Positions 1,139 to 59,810 of a stretch of DNA of 64,000 bases are shown in pieces. This DNA is from Chloroflexaceae bacterium. GTDB taxonomy: Bacteria > Chloroflexota > Chloroflexia > Chloroflexales > Chloroflexaceae. The stretch lies in NCBI GenBank assembly GCA_034436975.1, contig DAOTUE010000011.1, positions 68,079-132,078 on the forward strand. The letters are read 5' to 3'. Below the pieces are notes generated by a model. It made no database searches. It saw only the letters and a list, made by a program, of their open reading frames with translations, and was not told the origin of the DNA. Position 1 is the stretch's first letter. Each line of letters opens with the position of its first letter. Position numbers and translations under genes: made by a program.

Positions 1139-3269
1139 ACCTCACAACCAGCGGGAGATAGACCGTCTGCAAGTCCTCCGGATTTATAATCTCCCCACGA
1201 ACATGGAACGTGAACGGGTTTTCGTCAACATCGTTGTTTTCAATCTGCACCGCTCCCTCAACGGTGCCGGCCTGCGTGGTGTTCATTGTCACAATAAACT
1301 CGCGTGAGCTTCCACAGGGCACTCGTGGGGGGATATCCCCAAGCTGGAATCCGGAGGGAACCGAAGAGGTGGTGATGTCAAGAACCAGATCCTCCGTGCC
1401 AACATTTTTGATCGTGAACGTCTCCTCAACTGGCTCGCGGCCCACAACCCCATAGGGAAACTTGATAACAAGTTCTTCTGAGAGGACCTCGGTGCTCGTG
1501 ATATTCGTTTCACCATACCACACTTCTATCTCCGGTCCGGCGGCAACCTTTCCCACAACGGAAAAGGTGAACGATGGTTCATCATTGTCATTGTTTGAGA
1601 GAACAACGTCTCCTTCGTAGCTTCCGGATTCTTTGGCATCAAGCTGAATGGTGAATTTCGCCTCCTGCTCTGGTGCAACGGTCTCTGGCATTTCGCCCAC
1701 AAGCGAAAAGCCATCGGGGATGGTTGGTTGTTTAAGGCTCAGGTTGGCGGTGCCGCTCTCCGGCGTGGCTTCCGTATACACGTTCTTTATCGTGAACTCG
1801 CAGGAGATAGCCTCACCTCGTGGAGTTGTTCCAAACGTCACATCTGGCGATGTGGTAAGATCCTGCGAATAGAAAAAGACCGCGATTTCGGGCGATGCTT
1901 CAAACGCGCCGATGTCAACCCGCTCGTTGATAACTCGTGCATACCCCTCGCCGCGTTGGTCGCCAGCAAGAGGAAGGCTCCCGGCATCGAAGGCCGGGTC
2001 CCCGGCATCAATCGCGGGGCTACCGGGGAGTAGCGCGTGGGTCTGGCTCGACCCGCCGTTGTCGCCGAGCGGGGCCAGCAGGGGAGTTTCAGCAGTGATA
2101 TTGTGCTCAGTTGTCCCTTCTATCGTGCAGCCTCCCGTACTCCCAAAGAGGTTGTAATCCTGCGATACAATCGTTCCGCTACAATCCGGGCCGGAGCCTG
2201 TCACGTCGGTATCGGAGCCAATATAGTTGCCGGCAAGGAGCGTATGATTGATGCTAATGGTGCCACCATTGTTGGCAATACCGCCGCCATTGCCGTCGGT
2301 GCCGGCTGTTGTTCCGCTGGCCCCATTCCCGGCGGTGTTGTTGCTGATGGTTGTATTGAGCAGGGTTATGGTGCCGCCATCGCTGGTGATACCACCACCA
2401 TCGCCGCCAATCCCACCTTCCCGGCAGCCTTCAGGATGACAACTGCCATCTCCCGCAGCATTGCCGCTCAGTGTGCTATTGAGGATAGTAACGGTTCCGC
2501 TATTGTTGGCAATACCGCCGCCATTGCCACCTTCGCCACTTACCCCCCGGCTCGTTCCCCCTTTTCCTGCACGATTGTTGTGAACCAGGCTGTTGACCAG
2601 CGTCAGGGTTCCCTCAACGTTGTATATGCCCCCTCCATTGCCGCCATATCCCCCCAGGGCCTGTCCATATCCGCCCGTGCCTGCGGCATTGTCGCTCACA
2701 ACACAATTGATGAGCGTCAATGTTCCCCGCTCATTGTAGATTCCGCCTCCGTCAACCCCATCACTGGCATCTGTGCCATCGGGCGATTTCCCATTGGTAA
2801 ACGTTACGCCATCAATCTCAACCACCGCTCCTTCGTGGACATGCAAAACCCGGTCGCCAGCGTTTTCCCCCGCTTTGAGGATTGTCTGCTGCGGGCCGCT
2901 CCCGTGGATAGTCAGCATTCCTTTGACATCAAGATCGCCAGTTTCGCTATCACCCTCACGCGGGCCAAGCAGCGAGAGGGTATAGGTGCCTGCCGGGATG
3001 GTGATAACATCATCCCCACTGCCGGCGGGACAATCGCTCGACCCCGATTGATCATCGCGGTTGGCGTTGATAACCGCCTCGCGGAGCGAACATGCGCCAT
3101 TGGTATTGAGTTCGTCGGCTGTTGTTGCAACAGTAATGCTGGCCGCGTGGACCGGCCCCGCGGGCGCAACCTGGGGCAACAACGGAAGGCAAAGGAGAAG
3201 AGCAATCATGAGACGATGGACAAGACGTTGGTTTCTTTGATCGTTTCTAACAGATGTGAACATCATCAT
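1137..3269 (-). CDS. Secreted right-handed beta-helix repeat protein with two C-terminal Ig-like repeats
   Basis: Long ORF 1137..3458. Start chosen at the ATG cluster (MMMFTS) at 3269, ahead of the signal-like LLLCLPLLPQVAPAGPVHA. It has a CSLREAVINANRD motif and many G-rich GGxGGGI turns. Two ~115-aa repeats end in NND(N/V)DE(P/N)xFTF, resembling choice-of-anchor Q/D type modules. Confidence 0.7.
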   Translation of the reverse strand: MMMFTSVRNDQRNQRLVHRLMIALLLCLPLLPQVAPAGPVHAASITVATTADELNTNGACSLREAVINANRDDQSGSSDCPAGSGDDVITIPAGTYTLSLLGPREGDSETGDLDVKGMLTIHGSGPQQTILKAGENAGDRVLHVHEGAVVEIDGVTFTNGKSPDGTDASDGVDGGGIYNERGTLTLINCVVSDNAAGTGGYGQALGGYGGNGGGIYNVEGTLTLVNSLVHNNRAGKGGTSRGVSGEGGNGGGIANNSGTVTILNSTLSGNAAGDGSCHPEGCREGGIGGDGGGITSDGGTITLLNTTISNNTAGNGASGTTAGTDGNGGGIANNGGTISINHTLLAGNYIGSDTDVTGSGPDCSGTIVSQDYNLFGSTGGCTIEGTTEHNITAETPLLAPLGDNGGSSQTHALLPGSPAIDAGDPAFDAGSLPLAGDQRGEGYARVINERVDIGAFEASPEIAVFFYSQDLTTSPDVTFGTTPRGEAISCEFTIKNVYTEATPESGTANLSLKQPTIPDGFSLVGEMPETVAPEQEAKFTIQLDAKESGSYEGDVVLSNNDNDEPSFTFSVVGKVAAGPEIEVWYGETNITSTEVLSEELVIKFPYGVVGREPVEETFTIKNVGTEDLVLDITTSSVPSGFQLGDIPPRVPCGSSREFIVTMNTTQAGTVEGAVQIENNDVDENPFTFHVRGEIINPEDLQTVYLPLVVR

Positions 3270-3473
3270 CAAACCTTTCTTTATTCTCTCCGATACGAAA
3301 TATCCGGAACCAGACCAGTTTCTTTCGTGCATCCAGAAGCGTCTCTGCCAACAGCAGGAACGCAAACATAAGTATATCACATCCGGAGGATAAATGGAAT
3401 GAATTCTTGGAGATTCAGTATCTTCGCCTTCTTCCGACAGTCTTTTATATTGTTTCACAAGTGCCGGGGTATG

Positions 3474-3546
3474 GCCTTCAGACGCGAACCTTCCCGGTGG
3501 AGAGGGTTGTCTGAGAAGCCCAATCCTTGCCTTCAGGATTGGGAGT
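3474..3546 (+). repeat. Family-C repeat, copy C1 (hairpin CCCAATCCT...AGGATTGGG)
   Basis: GCCTTCAGACGCGAACCTTCCCGGTGGAGAGGGTTGTCTGAGAAGCCCAATCCT...AGGATTGGGAG is nearly identical to 51624-51690. It is intergenic. Confidence 0.8.
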
Positions 3547-3650
3547 AGTCACCGGGGAGAGAGGAGTGGGAGAGAGGGGAGTGGATGAGTGGGGAAGGAC
3601 TGGTCTCTGACACTTCCCACTCCTCCGTCCCACTATCCCCTCCCTTACCT

Positions 3651-23780: not shown

Positions 23781-24296
23781 CTATGCAACAAGCGATTCTT
23801 CGCACACATCGGCAAACCCGCAGCCACGGCAACGATTCGGATTGTTGTGACAACGAGCGCAATCATCCGCCTCCAGGTCGGCCTGCATCGCATCCAGCAC
23901 ATCCAGGAGCCGGCTCCGCACTGCTGGCGTATAGGGAATACGAAAACTGGCCTCAGCGTAGCGCAGCAACCCGTAGGGGGGGCGATGTACGGTTGTCGCT
24001 TCGAGTAGCAAACAGTAAACCACAACCTGCATCATATCTGACTCATAGGGCTGTGGGGCAGTGCGCCCCGGCTTGACCTCAACCGGTATCCAGTGCTGTC
24101 CAACCTGGATTATGTAGTCGGGCTTGCCTGTCAGCCCATAGTCTGACGAAAAGAGCGGTTGTTGGAGCGGCTCTCCCCCGCCGGTATCGCTCCCGACAAC
24201 CCGCACCCACGGAATACCCGTTTTTTCTCGCAGACGCAACGCATACCGCAAGAGAATAAGCGCGAGGAAAAAGCAGACAACAGCAGCAACAAGCAT
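23781..24296 (-). CDS. Cas4/RecB-like PD-(D/E)xK nuclease domain protein, C-terminal part (TM helix + nuclease core + C-x2-C-x5-C)
   Basis: ATG at 24296 (MLVAAVVCFFLALILL). GKPDYII...IPVEVKPG (D...ExK), the QVVVY (QxxxY) motif, and CRGCGFADVC at the C-terminus. Confidence 0.7.
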   Translation of the reverse strand: MLVAAVVCFFLALILLRYALRLREKTGIPWVRVVGSDTGGGEPLQQPLFSSDYGLTGKPDYIIQVGQHWIPVEVKPGRTAPQPYESDMMQVVVYCLLLEATTVHRPPYGLLRYAEASFRIPYTPAVRSRLLDVLDAMQADLEADDCARCHNNPNRCRGCGFADVCEESLVA

Positions 24297-24532
24297 CACA
24301 AGAGCGTGATCAGGCCCAGGATGAGGGCGATGAGGGCCAGGAACAGCAACCCTCCCGCAAGAAGGAGCACCCCGTTGCTTGCATTGACCATCCCGCCGTG
24401 GCGCGTGTGGAGCACCTCGCCCGCGGCGCGACGCTGGTGGCCCGCAGGCTCCAGGCCTGCAACACGGCGCAGCCACCAGGCCCGCGCACAAAAGAGGTAT
24501 TCATTCACTTCGCTGGCTCGGATAATGGCCAT
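24296..24532 (-). CDS. Cas4-like N-terminal part (SEVNEYLFCARAWWL cysteine motif + TM helix), separate ORF overlapping the next by 1 nt
   Basis: 78-aa ORF. The N-terminal motif matches the first Fe-S cysteine region of Cas4/DUF83 proteins. Its TGA overlaps the ATG of the 23781-24296 ORF (TGATG). Confidence 0.6.
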   Translation of the reverse strand: MAIIRASEVNEYLFCARAWWLRRVAGLEPAGHQRRAAGEVLHTRHGGMVNASNGVLLLAGGLLFLALIALILGLITLL

Positions 24533-26066: not shown

Positions 26067-26611
26067 CCGGCTGACTCAGAGGGTTTCACAACAAGGTTTT
26101 GATAATCGTTTGAGGTAAAGCAGGCCTGCCCTGCCTCCGGCGGGTCCAGCTCCATTGCCATCACTTCCATTGCATACTTGTTTGAGAAGGGCAACTTCCG
26201 GCCGGTCAACCGCTCATACAGTTTGTTCCAACGCCACACCCCTTTTGTCAAATAGGCAAAGGCAAAAACCGCAAGACCCATAATGGTAATGACCGCCCCC
26301 AGGAAGAGATAGAACAGGGGGGGGGTAAAATTCTCATCCACAATGTGTTCAAAAATGTAGATGAGACCACAAATTGCCACGCTAAGGAAGGGAATAATGG
26401 AAAGAAGCCCGAACAATGGGGTCCATATGCCATATTTCAGAGAACATACATTGCAGATAAAAGCAGTTTTTTCAGCTACCTGGTAGCGCACCACATTGAC
26501 TTTGCGATTGCCGCGCTGTCGTCTTTCCTTTCCCGATTCGACACCATAGTAATAATGATAATGCTTTCCTTTTCTGGTTTTCCCACACTTTGCACACACG
26601 TCACGGGGCAT
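26063..26611 (-). CDS. Hypothetical membrane protein with N-terminal zinc-ribbon (CAKCG...CNVC)
   Basis: 182-aa ORF with two clear TM helices. The local sequence is visibly AT-richer than its neighbours. Confidence 0.5.
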   Translation of the reverse strand: MPRDVCAKCGKTRKGKHYHYYYGVESGKERRQRGNRKVNVVRYQVAEKTAFICNVCSLKYGIWTPLFGLLSIIPFLSVAICGLIYIFEHIVDENFTPPLFYLFLGAVITIMGLAVFAFAYLTKGVWRWNKLYERLTGRKLPFSNKYAMEVMAMELDPPEAGQACFTSNDYQNLVVKPSESAG

Positions 26612-26761
26612 ACTCTGGCTCCTTGTTTTTCCTCAATTCAGGAATTACGAAATTGTGGCAATACTGCCGCTGCTGAACCTTTCTTCTTTTCCAATGGCTA
26701 TTGCGCTGTCTTTGTCACATACCATCGCCATTATAGCACAGGTCCTTTGAGCAATTTCAAA

Positions 26762-26790
26762 TAGACAGCACAGAGGCAGTATGATACAAT
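26762..26790 (+). promoter_or_regulatory. Candidate sigma70-type promoter upstream of glpX
   Basis: TAGACA (26762-26767), 17 nt, TACAAT (26785-26790), with an upstream TG (TGATACAAT). It lies ~115 nt before the glpX ATG. Confidence 0.45.
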
Positions 26791-26904
26791 CGCTACACGA
26801 AAAACACCCGTTTTGTGTCAAACATACGCAGTTCAACGGAAAAGGCAAAGGCTGCCCAACCTGTTGAACCATGAAACACAATCAAGCCACTAAGGGAGAA
26901 AGAC

Positions 26905-29377: not shown

Positions 29378-30277
29378 CTACCCATCTGGCCCGTGCCGGT
29401 GGGCGTGGTAGCTGCTGCGAACCAGCGGGTTGCTCTCGATATGACGAAACCCCCGCTTTTTTCCCTCCTGCTCAAAGAAAGCAAATTCTTCGGGGGTAAC
29501 ATAGCGATGGATGGGCCAGTGGTGCGCTGTGGGCGCGAGATATTGCCCGATGGTCATCACGTTGACATCCACACCACGCAACAGATCCATCACCTCCAGA
29601 ACTTCGTCGTTTGTTTCGCCCGCCCCAACCATAATGCCGCTTTTGGTGATGAGACTGGCCTGATGCTGCCTTGCCCGCTCCAACAGTTCCAGGCTCCGGG
29701 CAAAGCTGGCACGGGGGCGAAACCGCGGGAAAATAGATGGGACCGTCTCAACATTGTGATTCAACACGTCTGGTTGCTCATCGAGCACGGCCTGGAGCGC
29801 GTCCCAGTTGCCGGCAAAATCGGGAATGAGCACCTCGACTTTGCAGCCGGGGTGGTGCTGGCGAATGAGGCGGATGCTGCGGGCAAAGAGGCGGGCCCCG
29901 CCGTCGGGCAGGTCGTCGCGGGTGACGGAAGTTAGCACCGCGTGTTTGAGTTTCAGGTAGGCGACAGCGTGGGCAATGTGTTCGGGTTCGTCCTCATCCA
30001 GCGGCTTCGGCTGGCCCTTGCTGATGGCGCAGAAGCGGCAATTGCGAGTGCAGATGTCGCCAAGCAGCAAGAATGTGGCGGTGCGGTGGTTCCAGCATTC
30101 GCCAATGTTGGGGCAACGGGCCTCCTCACAGACGGTGTGGAGGTTCAGGTTTCGCATCAGGCGGACAAGTTCGGCGTGGTTTTCTCCCGTCGGGGCGCGG
30201 ACCTTCATCCAGGTTGGCCGCTGCCGCAAGGGAGAGGGTTCATCGCTGGTTTCTGGCTGTATGATGATGTCGGTCAT
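29378..30277 (-). CDS. lipA: Lipoyl synthase
   Basis: ATG at 30277 (MTDIIIQ). CEEARCPNIGECW and radical-SAM CTRNCRFC cysteine motifs. The upstream part of the ORF-track ORF is repeat-derived. Confidence 0.9.
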   Translation of the reverse strand: MTDIIIQPETSDEPSPLRQRPTWMKVRAPTGENHAELVRLMRNLNLHTVCEEARCPNIGECWNHRTATFLLLGDICTRNCRFCAISKGQPKPLDEDEPEHIAHAVAYLKLKHAVLTSVTRDDLPDGGARLFARSIRLIRQHHPGCKVEVLIPDFAGNWDALQAVLDEQPDVLNHNVETVPSIFPRFRPRASFARSLELLERARQHQASLITKSGIMVGAGETNDEVLEVMDLLRGVDVNVMTIGQYLAPTAHHWPIHRYVTPEEFAFFEQEGKKRGFRHIESNPLVRSSYHAHRHGPDG

Positions 30278-30310
30278 CGGGGTGTTCCTTTCGTTTTTGT
30301 CTCTTGCTGT

Positions 30311-30426
30311 GTAATCGTTCAGGCCCCCCACCTGGCCTTCCCCCAGCGGGGGGTATGCATCGGGGCAAGCGAGACGCTTGCGCTTCCAGGGATCAGGGAT
30401 TGCCCGAACACAGGGAACGTTTTCAC
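30311..30426 (+). mobile_element. Family-A MITE-like element, copy A2
   Basis: It starts GTAATCGTTCAGGCCCCCCACCTGG, contains the GCAAGCGAGACGCTTGC hairpin, and ends GGGAACGTTTTCAC. It fills the gap between the nuclease-like gene and lipA. Confidence 0.75.
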
Positions 30427-30992
30427 CGCTTCTGTTTCCGAGCGGGTTTGTCCTTCTTTTGTTGTTTCTGGTCTTGTGTCTGGCGCAGAAAATCGCCGAG
30501 ATCCTCATTTCGTTCAATGGCGTAGTTTTCTGCGCCAAAGAGATCTTCTAGCGGGTCTTTGAATTTTTTTACCTCTTTTTTCGGCATGCTCCCATGCATC
30601 AAGATGTATCCCTTCAGGTGGACCCGTTCCCAGAGCCGGGGAGAGATTGCAGATCGGGCCAGAGTGTTGAGTGCATGGTATGTTGTCTCAATTTGTTTCA
30701 CCGCTTCAGCGATCTCTCTTCCCTTCAATTCTACCAGACAGAGGACAATTTCCTTGCTTTCATTGGCAAAAAAAACGAGCAAATCACAGATGGGTTCTTC
30801 TGATAGTCGAAGTTTTTGACGCATCAGACACGGTGCATTGCGTTGCTGCTGATCATCTATGGGAAAAAAGAGGATGGTTTCTCCTGGACCTGGTGCCATT
30901 CTTACATTACCACGGGCCCTGGGGTCAGGGTCTCGAAAACTCGTTCCATGTTTCAGGCATGTGAGCAGCAACGTATTGAAAGGCATTGGCAC
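30423..30992 (-). CDS. Putative PD-(D/E)xK-fold nuclease (third gene of the ATPase cassette)
   Basis: 189 aa. PICD70LLVFFANESKEIVLCLVE88LK90GREIAEAVKQI fits the strand-D / strand-ExK / helix core. Lys-rich C-terminal tail. GGAGGG RBS 9 nt upstream. Confidence 0.55.
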   Translation of the reverse strand: MPMPFNTLLLTCLKHGTSFRDPDPRARGNVRMAPGPGETILFFPIDDQQQRNAPCLMRQKLRLSEEPICDLLVFFANESKEIVLCLVELKGREIAEAVKQIETTYHALNTLARSAISPRLWERVHLKGYILMHGSMPKKEVKKFKDPLEDLFGAENYAIERNEDLGDFLRQTQDQKQQKKDKPARKQKR

Positions 30993-31007
30993 AAACCCTC
31001 CAAACCC

Positions 31008-32408
31008 TCAAAGATCAAAGTAGATGCGAGTAAGACGGTCCGCGATATTCCCAAACGTTGTCCAATCTATCATTTCCTCTTTCTGCAAGACACTCTTAAC
31101 CGTCCCCTGGTCCACAAGATAGGCCCCAACATTCGCCCGATCAATAAATGCATCTGATTGCTGCAAGAAGAACTTTTCGCGGATTTCTTCCGGGTCGGGG
31201 TGGGCCGCAGCAGCCATCAGGTTTTCCAGATGATCAACGATATAGGGGCTGTGGGTTGTTATCAGCACAGAAACCCCGGCATTGACGAGCATAGCAAGAA
31301 ACTCGGTCATCTTTACCTGCACCTCCGGGTGCAGGTTCATCTCCGGTTCGTCTATGATAATCAAATCGTTTTTTGTGGCGACGTAGCGCAGGTAGAGCAC
31401 GAGCGGGGCAAGGTCTTTGACCATTGAGGACACCACAGACATATCGAGCGCACCACGCCGGGGCACCTGAAAGAGCAAATCGCGATGGAGATCTGGCTCC
31501 GGGGTGGAGAAATTGAGCGTCCCACCGAGAATGTCATGCTCCAGAAGGGAAGCCAGGTCGAGATAGTTCTGGATTGTCGGGGTTGTTTCTGTCTGTTTTT
31601 CCCTTCTTGCCAGACTGCTCCGGAAAATGTTTTCCATCAATCGGACGAAATCAGCGACCGGCACTGGCATCAATCGCCGTGGTTCTTCTTTTTGTATTGC
31701 CTCTCTGGTCTTTGCCAGTTCATCCGAAGGGATAAGCTGAGGCCGATAGGTGATAAACGTTGTTCGATCTGTGGGAAAAATATGAATACTGGTGTAGAGC
31801 ATCTGGTGCAACACACCGAAAATAGTGCCAAAGACAAACTCTTTGATAACCCTATCTGGCAACTTTTCCTGGACATCCGCTCCGGCAGTTGTGTAAAAAT
31901 AGCAGGCCGGATCGTCCGTCGCTTTGCTGGCATTCAGCAAAGCCGTTTCTTTACGCTGACCAACAGAGAGCTTGAACTCCACCGCAAAAGATCGCGCCTG
32001 TTGCAATAACCGTTCTTTCCTCTCCCCTGGCTCTACCGTTATCTCAAGGTCTGCAAACGACACCCGCTCTGTGCCCATAAATTCCTGCATCCACTGGCGG
32101 GCAAGTCGCGCAACGTCGTTGAAATAGTCCTGCGCGCAGGTGTCGGCAAACTGCACCATGTCAATTTTTGCATTGCCCTCATTGAGGAGTTGCTGGAAGG
32201 CCTGCTCCAGCGGGGGATAGGAAACCTGTGTTTGCCCATCCAGATAGCCCCTCAGATACCGTTGCCAGCCGTAGGAGCCCAAAACCCCTGCCAGGACGTA
32301 GGCAATCCAGGACTTGCCCGAATTGTTCGGGCCAATAAAGAGCGTGAGCGGCTTGAGAACAAGGTCCGCCTCGCCAATCGGCCCCAGGTTTTTGATAGAG
32401 ATATTCAC
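31008..32408 (-). CDS. ABC/SMC-like ATPase (AAA_21/AAA_15-type) with long helical insertion
   Basis: GTG start with GGAGGA RBS. Walker A GPNNSGK32S, Q-loop-like IFPTDR, degenerate signature VVSSMVKDL, Walker B DLIIIDEPEMNLHP, H-loop TTHSPY. Confidence 0.8.
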   Translation of the reverse strand: MNISIKNLGPIGEADLVLKPLTLFIGPNNSGKSWIAYVLAGVLGSYGWQRYLRGYLDGQTQVSYPPLEQAFQQLLNEGNAKIDMVQFADTCAQDYFNDVARLARQWMQEFMGTERVSFADLEITVEPGERKERLLQQARSFAVEFKLSVGQRKETALLNASKATDDPACYFYTTAGADVQEKLPDRVIKEFVFGTIFGVLHQMLYTSIHIFPTDRTTFITYRPQLIPSDELAKTREAIQKEEPRRLMPVPVADFVRLMENIFRSSLARREKQTETTPTIQNYLDLASLLEHDILGGTLNFSTPEPDLHRDLLFQVPRRGALDMSVVSSMVKDLAPLVLYLRYVATKNDLIIIDEPEMNLHPEVQVKMTEFLAMLVNAGVSVLITTHSPYIVDHLENLMAAAAHPDPEEIREKFFLQQSDAFIDRANVGAYLVDQGTVKSVLQKEEMIDWTTFGNIADRLTRIYFDL

Positions 32409-32641
32409 TCCTCCGGAGCCTCCTGCAAAAACCGCTTGAGCGTCCGCAATATCGCTCCAATCATGTGCTCCCCGACCACCTCTAGCTGAACCTTGATGTA
32501 GCTATGGGTATTCATTCGCTCATTGACCTCTACCATTTCTTCATGGAAAATCTTCATAAAGACATCTTCATGCTGCTCGATATAGGCAATGAGTTCATCT
32601 CGGATTATTCTTACAATAATGTCGCGTATGCGCTGTTTCAT
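32405..32641 (-). CDS. Small acidic helical protein (first gene of the ATPase-nuclease cassette)
   Basis: 78-aa ORF with an AAGGA RBS, starting 10 nt after the lipB stop. Its TGA overlaps the GTG of the ATPase gene (GTGA). Confidence 0.55.
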   Translation of the reverse strand: MKQRIRDIIVRIIRDELIAYIEQHEDVFMKIFHEEMVEVNERMNTHSYIKVQLEVVGEHMIGAILRTLKRFLQEAPEE

Positions 32642-32651
32642 ATATCCTTAT

Positions 32652-33440
32652 TCAAAAGATAGAAGAGTATCGCTCGTGGCCAATCGTTTCAATCGGGTCT
32701 ATTCCAAACACCTCGGCAAAATGGGCGACAACCTGCCTTACTACCTCTGCCATCGGCGGTGCGCCCCCCAGAAGCTGCTCCAGCGAGGTGACACGGGAGT
32801 TTTGAATGCCACAGGGGATGATCGTCTGGAAACCATGCATCTCTGGCGCAACATTCAGGGCAAAGCCATGCGAGGTGATGCCGCTGGCACTGAGCCGCAC
32901 GCCAATAGCCGCAATTTTAGCGGGAGCTTTCCCCTCAAGCCCAACCCACACCCCGGTAAGCCCCTCGACCCGTCCACCAGCAATCCCATATGTGCCCAGC
33001 GTCCGGATAAGGACCTCTTCGAGATTGCGGAGATACTGAAGTACATTGCCGCCATAGTGAGCCAGTTTGAGCACGGGGTAGCCCACAAGTTGCCCTGGTG
33101 CATGGTAGGTAACATCGCCGCCCCGGTCACTCTCAACCAGGTCAATCCCCTGGCGGGCGAGGTCGTCGGGGGAGAGCAAAATGTGTTCGCTGTGTGCCGC
33201 TCGCCCCAGGGTAATCGTGGGGGGGTGTTCCAGGAGTAAGAGCGTATCGGAACCATCGCCCGCCGATCGCTCGGCCACAAGTTGTTGCTGCCATCGCCAG
33301 GCCTGCCGGTAGTCAACCAGCCCCCCTATCAGGCGCACCAGCAGGCGGTATTTCCCTCTGTCGTCTCCCCGCCCACCTTCTCCCTTTCCAGCAAAAGGGA
33401 GAGGGGCCTGGTTTCTATCTTCTCCGTTTGTCAAACCCAT
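32652..33440 (-). CDS. lipB: Octanoyltransferase (lipoate-protein ligase B)
   Basis: LLLLEHPPTITLGR, DRGGDVTYHAPGQLVGYPVL and PCGI motifs. The start is uncertain: the first ~30 aa are low complexity, and an internal GTG near 33329 is possible. Confidence 0.85.
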   Translation of the reverse strand: MGLTNGEDRNQAPLPFAGKGEGGRGDDRGKYRLLVRLIGGLVDYRQAWRWQQQLVAERSAGDGSDTLLLLEHPPTITLGRAAHSEHILLSPDDLARQGIDLVESDRGGDVTYHAPGQLVGYPVLKLAHYGGNVLQYLRNLEEVLIRTLGTYGIAGGRVEGLTGVWVGLEGKAPAKIAAIGVRLSASGITSHGFALNVAPEMHGFQTIIPCGIQNSRVTSLEQLLGGAPPMAEVVRQVVAHFAEVFGIDPIETIGHERYSSIF

Positions 33441-33625: not shown

Positions 33626-33772
33626 GTAAGCGTTCACTGTGTTTGGGCAATTCCCAATCCCTGGGAGCAAAAGCGTCTCACTTGCCCCGATGCGGGTGCG
33701 TCCCTCCCTCTCCCTCTCCCACTCCCTCCCCCCAGTGGAGGGAGGGCAGGTAGGGGGGGGCTGAACGATTAC
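33626..33772 (-). mobile_element. Family-A MITE-like element, copy A3 (inverted orientation)
   Basis: The plus strand starts GTAAGCGTTCACTG and ends CTGAACGATTAC. The interior carries GCAAAAGCGTCTCACTTGC and long C-run/G-run segments. Confidence 0.75.
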
Positions 33773-33797
33773 ACATGTTGTGTTCTCAATACAGCCA

Positions 33798-59644: not shown

Positions 59645-59731
<87 letters not shown>

Positions 59732-59736
59732 CCCGA

Positions 59737-59810
59737 TGGGGAATAGTTTAATGGTAGAACGCCTGACTCTGAATCAGGTAGTTGGGGTTCGAATCCCTGT
59801 TCCCCAGCCA
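59737..59810 (+). tRNA. tRNA-Gln (anticodon CTG), CCA encoded
   Basis: Acceptor stem TGGGGAA/TTCCCCA, anticodon stem CCTGA/TCAGG with loop CTCTGAA, T-loop GGTTCGAATCC. Confidence 0.9.

Follow-up and report, generated by a model that had tools for sequence, protein, structure and literature searches.

The stretch of DNA analyzed here (the window) comprises 64,000 nucleotides (nt) from a Chloroflexaceae bacterium (assembly GCA_034436975.1, contig DAOTUE010000011.1, positions 68,079 to 132,078 of the forward strand), and its proteins are 100% identical to those of contigs from a microbial-mat metagenome-assembled genome (MAG; GCA_964484815.1). Between lipB and lipA it carries, on the minus strand, an open reading frame (ORF) of 78 amino acids (aa), a gene for an ATP-binding cassette (ABC)-type ATPase (gene A), and a gene for a small predicted nuclease (gene B). 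We consider it likely that genes A and B together make up an anti-phage module of the same kind as PD-T4-4, PDC-M47, and WonAB, at a site between lipB and lipA whose content varies. A first-pass annotation, made from the sequence alone, had described the three ORFs as a horizontally acquired three-gene cassette that could not be placed in a named family. The features of the locus, in the order in which the minus strand is read, are as follows.

33628-33775, no strand: second copy of the repeat (~148 bp), upstream of lipB and in opposite orientation.
32652-33440, minus strand: lipB (octanoyltransferase), the upstream flank; ORF list and Pfam LplA-B_cat (3.5e-48).
32405-32641, minus strand: 78-aa gene, 10 nt past lipB; ORF list.
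31008-32408, minus strand: gene A, starting with GTG and encoding an ABC (OLD-type) ATPase of 466 aa; ORF list and Pfam.
30423-30986, minus strand: gene B, 187-aa predicted PD-(D/E)xK nuclease, starting at the ATG at 30986 according to its conserved N terminus, MPFNTLLL.
30308-30422, no strand: repeat of ~115 bp, located between gene B and lipA and forming an inverted pair with the copy at 33628-33775.
29378-30277, minus strand: lipA, encoding a lipoyl synthase of 299 aa, on the downstream side; Pfam Radical_SAM and LIAS_N, ATG at 30277.

The ORF list confirmed that the 78-aa ORF follows lipB after 10 nt and that its stop codon overlaps the GTG start of the 466-aa ORF (GTGA); the repeat and then lipA follow the third gene, as had been described. 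That third gene had been given as 189 aa, starting 15 nt after the ATPase gene behind a GGAGGG ribosome-binding site. An ORF does lie at 30423-30992, and its start was revised to the ATG at 30986 because the N-terminal MPFNTLLL is common to all homologues and the upstream GTG is not conserved, so that the protein has 187 aa and the gap to gene A, on the same strand, is 21 nt. As this N terminus is kept across the family, a 158-aa call for gene B (P0002, starting at Met32) was ruled out. We likewise rejected a 386-aa "lipA" ORF of the mechanical list, which runs through the repeat and is over-extended; in the identical contigs, the lipA call has 299 aa. Translation of lipB may truly begin some 20 codons past the listed ATG, and lipB homologues are called at 242-256 aa. 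No terminator-like site was predicted on the minus strand from lipB to the end of gene B and promoter-like sites occurred at chance frequency, both scans performing at chance level. Because the gene junctions are tight and no minus-strand terminator was predicted, co-transcription of the pair with lipB, as proposed in the first-pass annotation along with the placement between lipB and lipA, is plausible; lipB is probably the first gene of the transcription unit, into which the pair has probably been drawn.

Pfam assigned the 466-aa protein to AAA_15 (1.4e-21) and AAA_21 (1.2e-17), in agreement with its earlier description as an ABC-type ATPase of that kind. The ATPase motifs that had been quoted, namely, Walker A GPNNSGK32S, signature VVSSMVKDL, Walker B DLIIIDEPEMNLHP, and H-loop TTHSPY, are all present and fall on invariant columns of an alignment of 26 full-length homologues (G26, N28, G31, K32, R215, S327, S328, M329, D353, E354, and H386). 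More specifically, K32 belongs to Walker A, R215 stands at the Q-loop position, S327-S328-M329 lie in the signature, D353-E354 in Walker B, and H386 in the H-loop. The ~75 residues past the H-loop are conserved as well, with W449, T451, and F452 invariant in the same alignment. Among the PADLOC profiles, the PD-T4-4_A model PDLC04033 gave an E value of 1.1e-56, with residues 1-456 aligned to model positions 1-444 of 460, and was followed by PDC-M47A (1.1e-46, nearly full length) and by a second PD-T4-4_A model, PDLC04032 (3.7e-43); the same models were matched by 26/26 family members tested. Consistently, BLASTP against a bona fide PD-T4-4_A from an E. coli plasmid aligned residues 1-463 at 24% identity (E 7e-26). 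Matches to AriA, PtuA, GajA, and Old had their best stretches at about residues 320-395 (Walker B/H-loop) and were at least 30 orders of magnitude weaker than that to PD-T4-4_A, and PDC-M29A matched residues 349-396 alone (3e-13). In the PDB, too, similarity to these four proteins was far weaker and clustered in roughly the 320-395 segment. The window ATPase scores 191 bits on PDLC04033, well below the 301-534 bits of bona fide members (up to 862 on PDLC04032), and its clade is therefore an outlying one. By analogy with these families, we infer that gene A encodes a PD-T4-4_A / PDC-M47A-like sensor and regulator subunit. The earlier statement that no named family could be assigned is thus superseded, since the matches to PD-T4-4_A and PDC-M47A span the full length of the ATPase, and an ATPase with a PD-(D/E)xK nuclease is what PD-T4-4 has already been described to be. 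A sequence search of the PDB returned no solved structure in either the ATPase or the nuclease family.

The residues D70, E88, and K90, in which a D...(D/E)xK nuclease motif had been recognized, become D68, E86, and K88 in the true numbering of gene B, and a further conserved residue is E36. This motif withstood alignment of the family: D68 and E86 are invariant among both 42 and 70 sequences, and E36 and K88 are invariant among the 42 and at least 90% conserved among the 70. C67, C83, and Q98 are also highly conserved in both alignments, the window protein has a C-terminal tail rich in lysine and glutamine, and a basic tail is found at the end of many family members. An AlphaFold2 model built from the 70-sequence alignment reached a predicted local distance difference test (pLDDT) score of 88.2 and a predicted template modeling score (pTM) of 0.85. 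In this model, D68 opens a strand (69-74), E86xK88 closes the strand that pairs with it in a hairpin (80-86), and next come a long helix (92-113) and another strand (122-129), a predicted arrangement typical of the restriction endonuclease (REase) core, beta-beta-beta-alpha-beta. With its predicted nuclease fold, gene B is the presumed effector.

Searches of Pfam, NCBIfam, and PADLOC with gene B yielded no meaningful family and no TOPRIM or HNH match; a match to RmrA (6e-4) was set aside, being seen in 1/42 family members. Links to named nucleases appeared at the level of the family. The gene B protein of a Ktedonobacteraceae locus (L040) matches the PD-T4-4_B model PDLC04037 at 6.2e-7 across the catalytic core, three members match PDLC04034 (also PD-T4-4_B) at ~2e-3, and the 42 members together gave five hits to PDC-M47B models and five to PD-T4-4_B models; PDC-M29B was matched by 26/42 (best 3.4e-8). 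When the family was aligned by hhalign with eight PD-T4-4_B/PDC-M47B-type proteins, an E value of 2.2e-4 was obtained over 94 columns, with E..D..CD..(D/E)xK..Q in register and at matching spacing. Because of these indirect profile links, the full-length homology of the ATPase, and the identical operon layout, we read gene B as a highly diverged homologue of PD-T4-4_B, which is the weakest step of the family assignment. Automated PADLOC annotation would probably miss the system.

To describe how the pair is distributed, we used as comparison loci the best 80 of at least 391 matching stretches, each GTDB species being represented by one genome. The ATPase has at least 1,210 protein matches in databases at E<=1e-10, the best 120 of them being 44-53% identical over the full length. 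The best 80 loci come from Chloroflexota (Ktedonobacteraceae, Thermogemmatispora, Chloroflexaceae, Caldilineaceae, and Anaerolineae), from Cyanobacteria (Microcoleus, Nostoc, Anabaena, and Calothrix), from Methanothrix and other archaea, from Gammaproteobacteria (Thiomargarita, Beggiatoa-like, and Methylococcaceae), and from Desulfobacterales, so that the distribution of the ATPase family is patchy across phyla and crosses into archaea. Partners were sought with a hidden Markov model built from the few directly detectable gene B homologues, and 4/80 contigs end before the partner position. A gene B homologue lies directly downstream of the ATPase gene in 72 of the 76 assessable loci, at a median gap of 12.5 nt. 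The other four (L046, L057, L067, and L081) have an apparently intact ATPase and no recognizable nuclease gene downstream; they are either orphan or decayed modules or carry a partner too diverged to detect. When every flanking ORF of the best 80 loci was clustered, no third conserved gene was found beyond lineage-specific synteny. The rate of pairing, the short gap, and the absence of a conserved third gene indicate that A and B form an obligate two-gene module. This co-occurrence analysis also disposes of the three-gene cassette as the unit, because the 78-aa gene is missing from the other ATPase-nuclease loci.

PD-T4-4 was isolated functionally from E. coli ECOR58 and validated as "ATPase, nuclease," its two ORFs spanning 1,973 bp (Vassallo et al. 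2022, PMC9519451); later work classed it as a P-loop/ABC ATPase with a PD-(D/E)xK nuclease, and its PADLOC models are PDLC04032-04037. For comparison, we took bona fide PD-T4-4 pairs from E. coli plasmids (A, 2.9e-260 and 8e-232 on PDLC04032; B, 6.1e-108 and 2.1e-94 on PDLC04035) and a PDC-M47 pair from a cyanobacterial plasmid. The window pair resembles PD-T4-4 in the following features: (i) gene A precedes gene B on one strand with a minimal gap; (ii) the ABC/OLD-type A protein, of ~460-480 aa in PD-T4-4, aligns end to end with the window ATPase; and (iii) the B protein, of ~190-210 aa, has the PD-(D/E)xK motifs in the same order and at the same spacing. It differs in that the window ATPase is just 24% identical and the window gene B is linked only transitively or by profile-profile comparison. 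Furthermore, PD-T4-4 sits on an integrative and conjugative element (ICE), small plasmids, and a P2-like phage hotspot, whereas the window pair occupies a housekeeping operon of a Chloroflexota chromosome.

WonAB, from the WASA-1 prophage of V. cholerae (AWB73975.1 and AWB73976.1), and an "OLD-ABC ATPase + novel REase" operon (SHI83489.1 and SHI83462.1) have been described as relatives of PD-T4-4 (PMC12137116). WonAB requires the Walker A lysine, an arginine, the Walker B glutamate, and the H-loop histidine of its ATPase (WonA K34/R182/E300/H333) together with K71 of its nuclease, WonB. Loss of ATPase activity entails loss of WonB, and in the predicted A2-B complex the nuclease docks on the dimerized WonA C-terminal extensions (PMC12137116). 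The system acts by lysis-independent abortive infection, being active after phage DNA replication starts and blocking capsid assembly without simply degrading DNA (PMC12137116). The window pair shares with it an OLD-type ABC ATPase with a C-terminal extension and a small variant PD-(D/E)xK nuclease, and K32, R215, E354, and H386 of the window ATPase are the same kinds of residue as those mutated in WonA, an equivalence drawn from the description and not from an alignment. PD-T4-4-like operons are described as distinct in Insert 1/2 and the C-terminal extension and, in some cases, also in the nuclease (PMC12137116). A tblastn search of phages for WonAB-type genes returned only PD-T4-4-type genes of Vibrio phages. 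One of these phages, Vibrio phage 1.202.O (L115, MG592573.1), carries at 1526-3557 a bona fide PD-T4-4 pair (A 6.4e-185 and B 6.5e-18 on the PADLOC models), annotated as "AAA domain protein" and "hypothetical protein" and located between a cI repressor and an integrase (P2-like).

PDC-M47 is close to the window pair in that PDC-M47A is the second-best family for the ATPase and the cyanobacterial plasmid pair has the same architecture; the window gene B matches neither the PDC-M47 nor the PDC-M29 B model, and both are PADLOC defense candidates that lend the window pair no functional evidence. PARIS (AriA/AriB), Septu (PtuA/PtuB), Gabija (GajA), OLD, and Lamassu likewise combine an OLD/ABC-type ATPase, or one like those of structural maintenance of chromosomes (SMC) proteins, with a nuclease effector. 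Their effectors are of the TOPRIM, HNH, or Cap4 type and not small REase-fold proteins, and the window ATPase has neither an SMC-like coiled coil nor a conserved third subunit. The expectation that an ATPase joined to a nuclease points to anti-phage defense was borne out insofar as the named systems closest to the pair act against phages.

By analogy with WonAB and PD-T4-4, the window ATPase would dimerize via its nucleotide-binding sites, and its C-terminal extension would hold the nuclease inactive in an A2-B(n) complex. A cue arising once phage DNA replication is under way may then alter the state of the ATPase and release or activate the nuclease, which would halt the infected cell before virion assembly, i.e., by abortive infection. 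The target of the nuclease may be RNA. It may not be bulk DNA, because purified EcPD-T4-4 formed higher-order complexes and cut 0/11 DNA substrates in vitro, which prompted the suggestion that it needs a specific trigger or acts on RNA/tRNA, and because WonAB causes no simple DNA degradation.

Several observations weigh against the assignment to PD-T4-4 and its relatives. With regard to the nuclease, Foldseek searches with the gene B model returned nothing significant (best E values of 2.7e-2 in PDB and 1.5e-3 in BFVD), so that the fold proposed for this protein found a confident model of REase-like topology and no significant structural match; the weak top matches are mostly REase-fold nucleases in PDB (Card1, MUS81, BsmI, EndoMS, PaqCI, LmuA, BstEII, and Avs3) and UL24/UL76 among the viral models of BFVD. 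The window gene B gave no PADLOC match to PD-T4-4_B (E<=1) and none to PDC-M47B/PDC-M29B at E<=0.01, and the hhalign probability is only 45%. With regard to genomic setting, no integrase, transposase, or other defense gene was found within +/-10 kb of the pair, and the G+C content at third codon positions (GC3) of the ATPase gene is essentially native in this genome. In Nostocales (L044-L066), Microcoleus (L015-L037), and Ktedonobacteria (L042-L090), the pair keeps the same flanking genes in 8-12 species each, which indicates long vertical residence at fixed sites of the chromosome and not carriage by mobile elements; the upstream neighbors in these lineages, named from their N-terminal sequences, are a putative metallophosphoesterase, gpsA, and nadA. 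The overlap of the 78-aa stop codon with the ATPase start leaves room for a functional link of that gene in this lineage. Finally, phage resistance that depends on both genes has been shown for E. coli PD-T4-4 and WonAB, whereas the window clade is known from genes alone.

The points on the nuclease, together with the low identity of the ATPase, would be expected if the pair were an independent family that shares a generic OLD/ABC core with PD-T4-4 and recruited an unrelated nuclease separately. That PDC-M29B is the model matched most often by the B family, though the PDC-M29A ATPase is distant, hints in the same direction, at an exchange of partners. We regard such an origin as unlikely, because the alignment with PD-T4-4_A/PDC-M47A runs end to end, through the inserts and the C-terminal extension; because gene order, protein sizes (466 + 187 aa versus ~460-483 + 184-210 aa), and the ordered motifs of the B protein are shared; and because the L040 member reaches PD-T4-4_B over the catalytic core. 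The relationship to PD-T4-4 also bears on novelty. A profile search had been named as the check that would show whether the module was already known, and it assigns the module to a named system; going by these profiles, the finding is a distant relative of known systems and not a new kind of system or defense principle.

The 78-aa protein had been taken for a small third subunit. It is acidic, and its model is a three-helix bundle (pLDDT 85), for which Foldseek against PDB gave no informative match; Pfam, NCBIfam, and PADLOC assigned it to no family. Searched exhaustively with phmmer, a set of 1.84 billion representative proteins yielded nine representative relatives, and R6, E25, E35, I49, G57, and F71 are invariant in the family. 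A homologue adjoins the ATPase gene only in the near-identical contigs of the window, in L006, and in L007/L008 (ATPase ~90% identical), and none stands beside the ATPase gene at the other loci, i.e., the best 80 GTDB loci, L010, and L020. The two closest homologues (64% and 48% identity; L100:1001-1234 and L101:885-1127) lie directly after lipB, one overlapping it and the other 1 nt behind it, on contigs whose lipB is 72-73% identical to that of the window (72% in L100), as compared with 65-67% for the lipB of L010 and L014. In L100, a short contig, the next gene past the small gene encodes a membrane protein and not the ATPase. More distant relatives sit in unrelated contexts, and a proposed placement of distant homologues after lipA was rejected, since the radical-SAM neighbor of P0243 is not LipA-like. 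From these neighborhoods we conclude that the 78-aa gene is real and most probably a lineage-specific, native partner of lipB, not a subunit of the module; the pair was either inserted just past it or retained there.

A slim chance is given to the possibility that the pair is functionally coupled to the lipB-linked 78-aa protein, which would be its lineage-specific regulator or antitoxin, or to lipoate/octanoyl status, or that the clade, given its fixed place beside housekeeping genes throughout whole families, is a stably domesticated subtype with another trigger or substrate than the mobile enterobacterial PD-T4-4. In the case of coupling to lipoate/octanoyl status, the expression or activity of an immune module would be tied to lipoate or octanoyl metabolism via the lipB operon. 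The GTGA overlap does make translational coupling likely but is no evidence for the role of a subunit.

It is quite improbable that the locus is a system of three components with the helical 78-aa protein as an adaptor or regulatory subunit, as in Lamassu. Such a system would account for the overlap and also for the exceptional conservation of the gene in the three close relatives that have the trio, where its ratio of nonsynonymous to synonymous substitution rates (dN/dS) is 0-0.18 and where, relative to L007, it shows 5 synonymous and 0 nonsynonymous differences with a synonymous divergence (dS) lower than that of its neighbors; the G+C content of the gene is also low, like that of the pair. 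In opposition to this, neither a homologue of the 78-aa gene nor any other conserved third gene accompanies the ATPase elsewhere, the closest homologues follow lipB, the ATPase gene of L010 overlaps lipB directly, and the low G+C content of the small gene persists in L100, without an ATPase gene after it.

The cargo of the lipB-lipA gap varies among the few related Chloroflexota contigs that were compared. The window has the 78-aa gene, A, and B; in L100, lipB is followed by the small gene and the membrane protein gene. The order in L010 is lipB, A, B, a gene for a PASTA-domain protein, and lipA, and that in L014, a Chloroflexaceae MAG, is lipB, a PDC-M38-like pair, A, B, and lipA; neither contains the small gene. 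The additional pair of L014 (4041-5974), an ATPase with its partner, matches the PADLOC candidate PDC-M38A/B (AbiLi-like; A 4.5e-70) and lies directly upstream of the PD-T4-4-like pair, so that the L014 gap forms a small defense islet between two housekeeping genes. At 77/80 of the best GTDB loci, lipB and lipA are absent from the neighborhood; with this and the varying cargo, the module does not track lipoate metabolism; such tracking had been named as something that would speak against a defense role. In a neighbor-joining tree of 81 ATPases, the window, L010, and L014 group in a single Chloroflexota clade whose resolution is loose and whose branches are very long, and for this reason one old insertion and repeated insertions are indistinguishable. 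Whether lipB and lipA adjoin each other in relatives lacking the trio had also been raised; L100 and L101 answer this in part, and a scan of metagenome contigs with lipB for close relatives lacking the pair found only lipB at 44-46% identity, which is uninformative. Beyond the locus, one flank holds a chemotaxis operon, and the opposite flank holds genes for proteins with a Wzy_C, an FBPase_glpX, or two-component (HisKA/HATPase_c/Response_reg) domains.

The two repeat copies, the only ones in the window, are inverted and bracket exactly the block of lipB, the 78-aa gene, the ATPase gene, and the nuclease gene. The copy on the lipA side is kept at the same place in L006, and the copy upstream of lipB, which holds a C/T-rich insertion (33628-33775), is absent in L007. 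As candidates for structured RNA, the copies gave fold z scores relative to shuffled sequences of -0.64 (30308-30422), no better than shuffling, and -2.49 (33628-33775), at most marginal, with no Rfam match.

Horizontal acquisition had been proposed from spot counts of G+C content. Over whole genes, G+C content is 0.517 for the ATPase gene, 0.477 for gene B, and 0.456 for the 78-aa gene versus 0.589 for lipB and 0.602 for lipA; GC3 is 0.60, 0.48, and 0.58 for the first three versus 0.62 and 0.65 for lipB and lipA. The contrast reported earlier is therefore real, although only modest, with GC3 nearly native for the ATPase. In L010 and L014, A and B have a GC3 of 0.37-0.49 versus 0.60-0.75 for lipB/lipA. 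Compositional evidence for recent transfer is thus weak in this genome and strong in the related L010 and L014. Measured against close relatives, dN/dS is 0.18-0.26 for gene A, 0.19-0.27 for gene B, and 0.18-0.27 for A, B, and lipB together; lipB, the 78-aa gene, A, and B are under purifying selection of similar strength.

A non-immune role, in which a domesticated housekeeping ATPase-nuclease (e.g., for DNA repair or RNA processing) might even be tied to lipoate metabolism, is very unlikely: it would suit the presence of the pair in the lipB-lipA gap of three diverged lineages (the window, L010, and L014), the housekeeping synteny within Nostocales, Microcoleus, and Ktedonobacteria, and an ATPase gene with native GC3, dN/dS like that of lipB, and no mobile-element genes nearby, but it is at odds with the general absence of lipB/lipA from the best GTDB loci, with the closer lipB relative L100, which has a membrane-protein gene in place of the ATPase gene after the small gene, with the defense-candidate pair sharing the L014 gap, with the foreign composition of A and B in L010 and L014, with the patchy, cross-domain distribution, and with the fact that the nearest characterized homologues are validated defense systems on plasmids, a P2-like phage, and an ICE.

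With the locus read as a PD-T4-4-type defense pair, what is new is (i) a very divergent, populous clade whose nuclease lies outside current models, (ii) a nonmobile site within an operon, and (iii) the variable lipB-lipA spot. The validated and mechanistically unsolved PD-T4-4/WonAB group would thereby be extended to Chloroflexota, Cyanobacteria, Methanothrix, and sulfur-oxidizing Gammaproteobacteria. Because the nuclease escapes the current PADLOC B models, defense censuses of these phyla probably undercount the system, and the 70-sequence alignment of gene B could seed an improved profile. The small lipB-linked family of the 78-aa protein is newly identified as well.

Elsewhere in the window, another 78-aa ORF (24296-24532) adjoins a 171-aa ORF (23781-24296) on the minus strand. 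On the Pfam PDDEXK_1/Cas4 model, the former covers positions 4-43, in the N-terminal part, and the latter positions 104-247, in the C-terminal part; 23781-24532 has the look of a Cas4-like nuclease gene that was split or frameshifted. The idea that the 78-aa protein of the lipB locus is a paralogue of the ORF beside this Cas4-like gene (~24.3 kb) was discarded, as the two have no similarity and the latter is the split N-terminal piece of PDDEXK_1. A second stretch of low G+C content (0.44-0.47 versus 0.57 for the window) lies at 26150-26900, around a 182-aa gene that has no Pfam match and the intergenic region upstream of it. Two adjacent tRNA genes on the plus strand (59645-59807) are the sole Rfam matches in the window.

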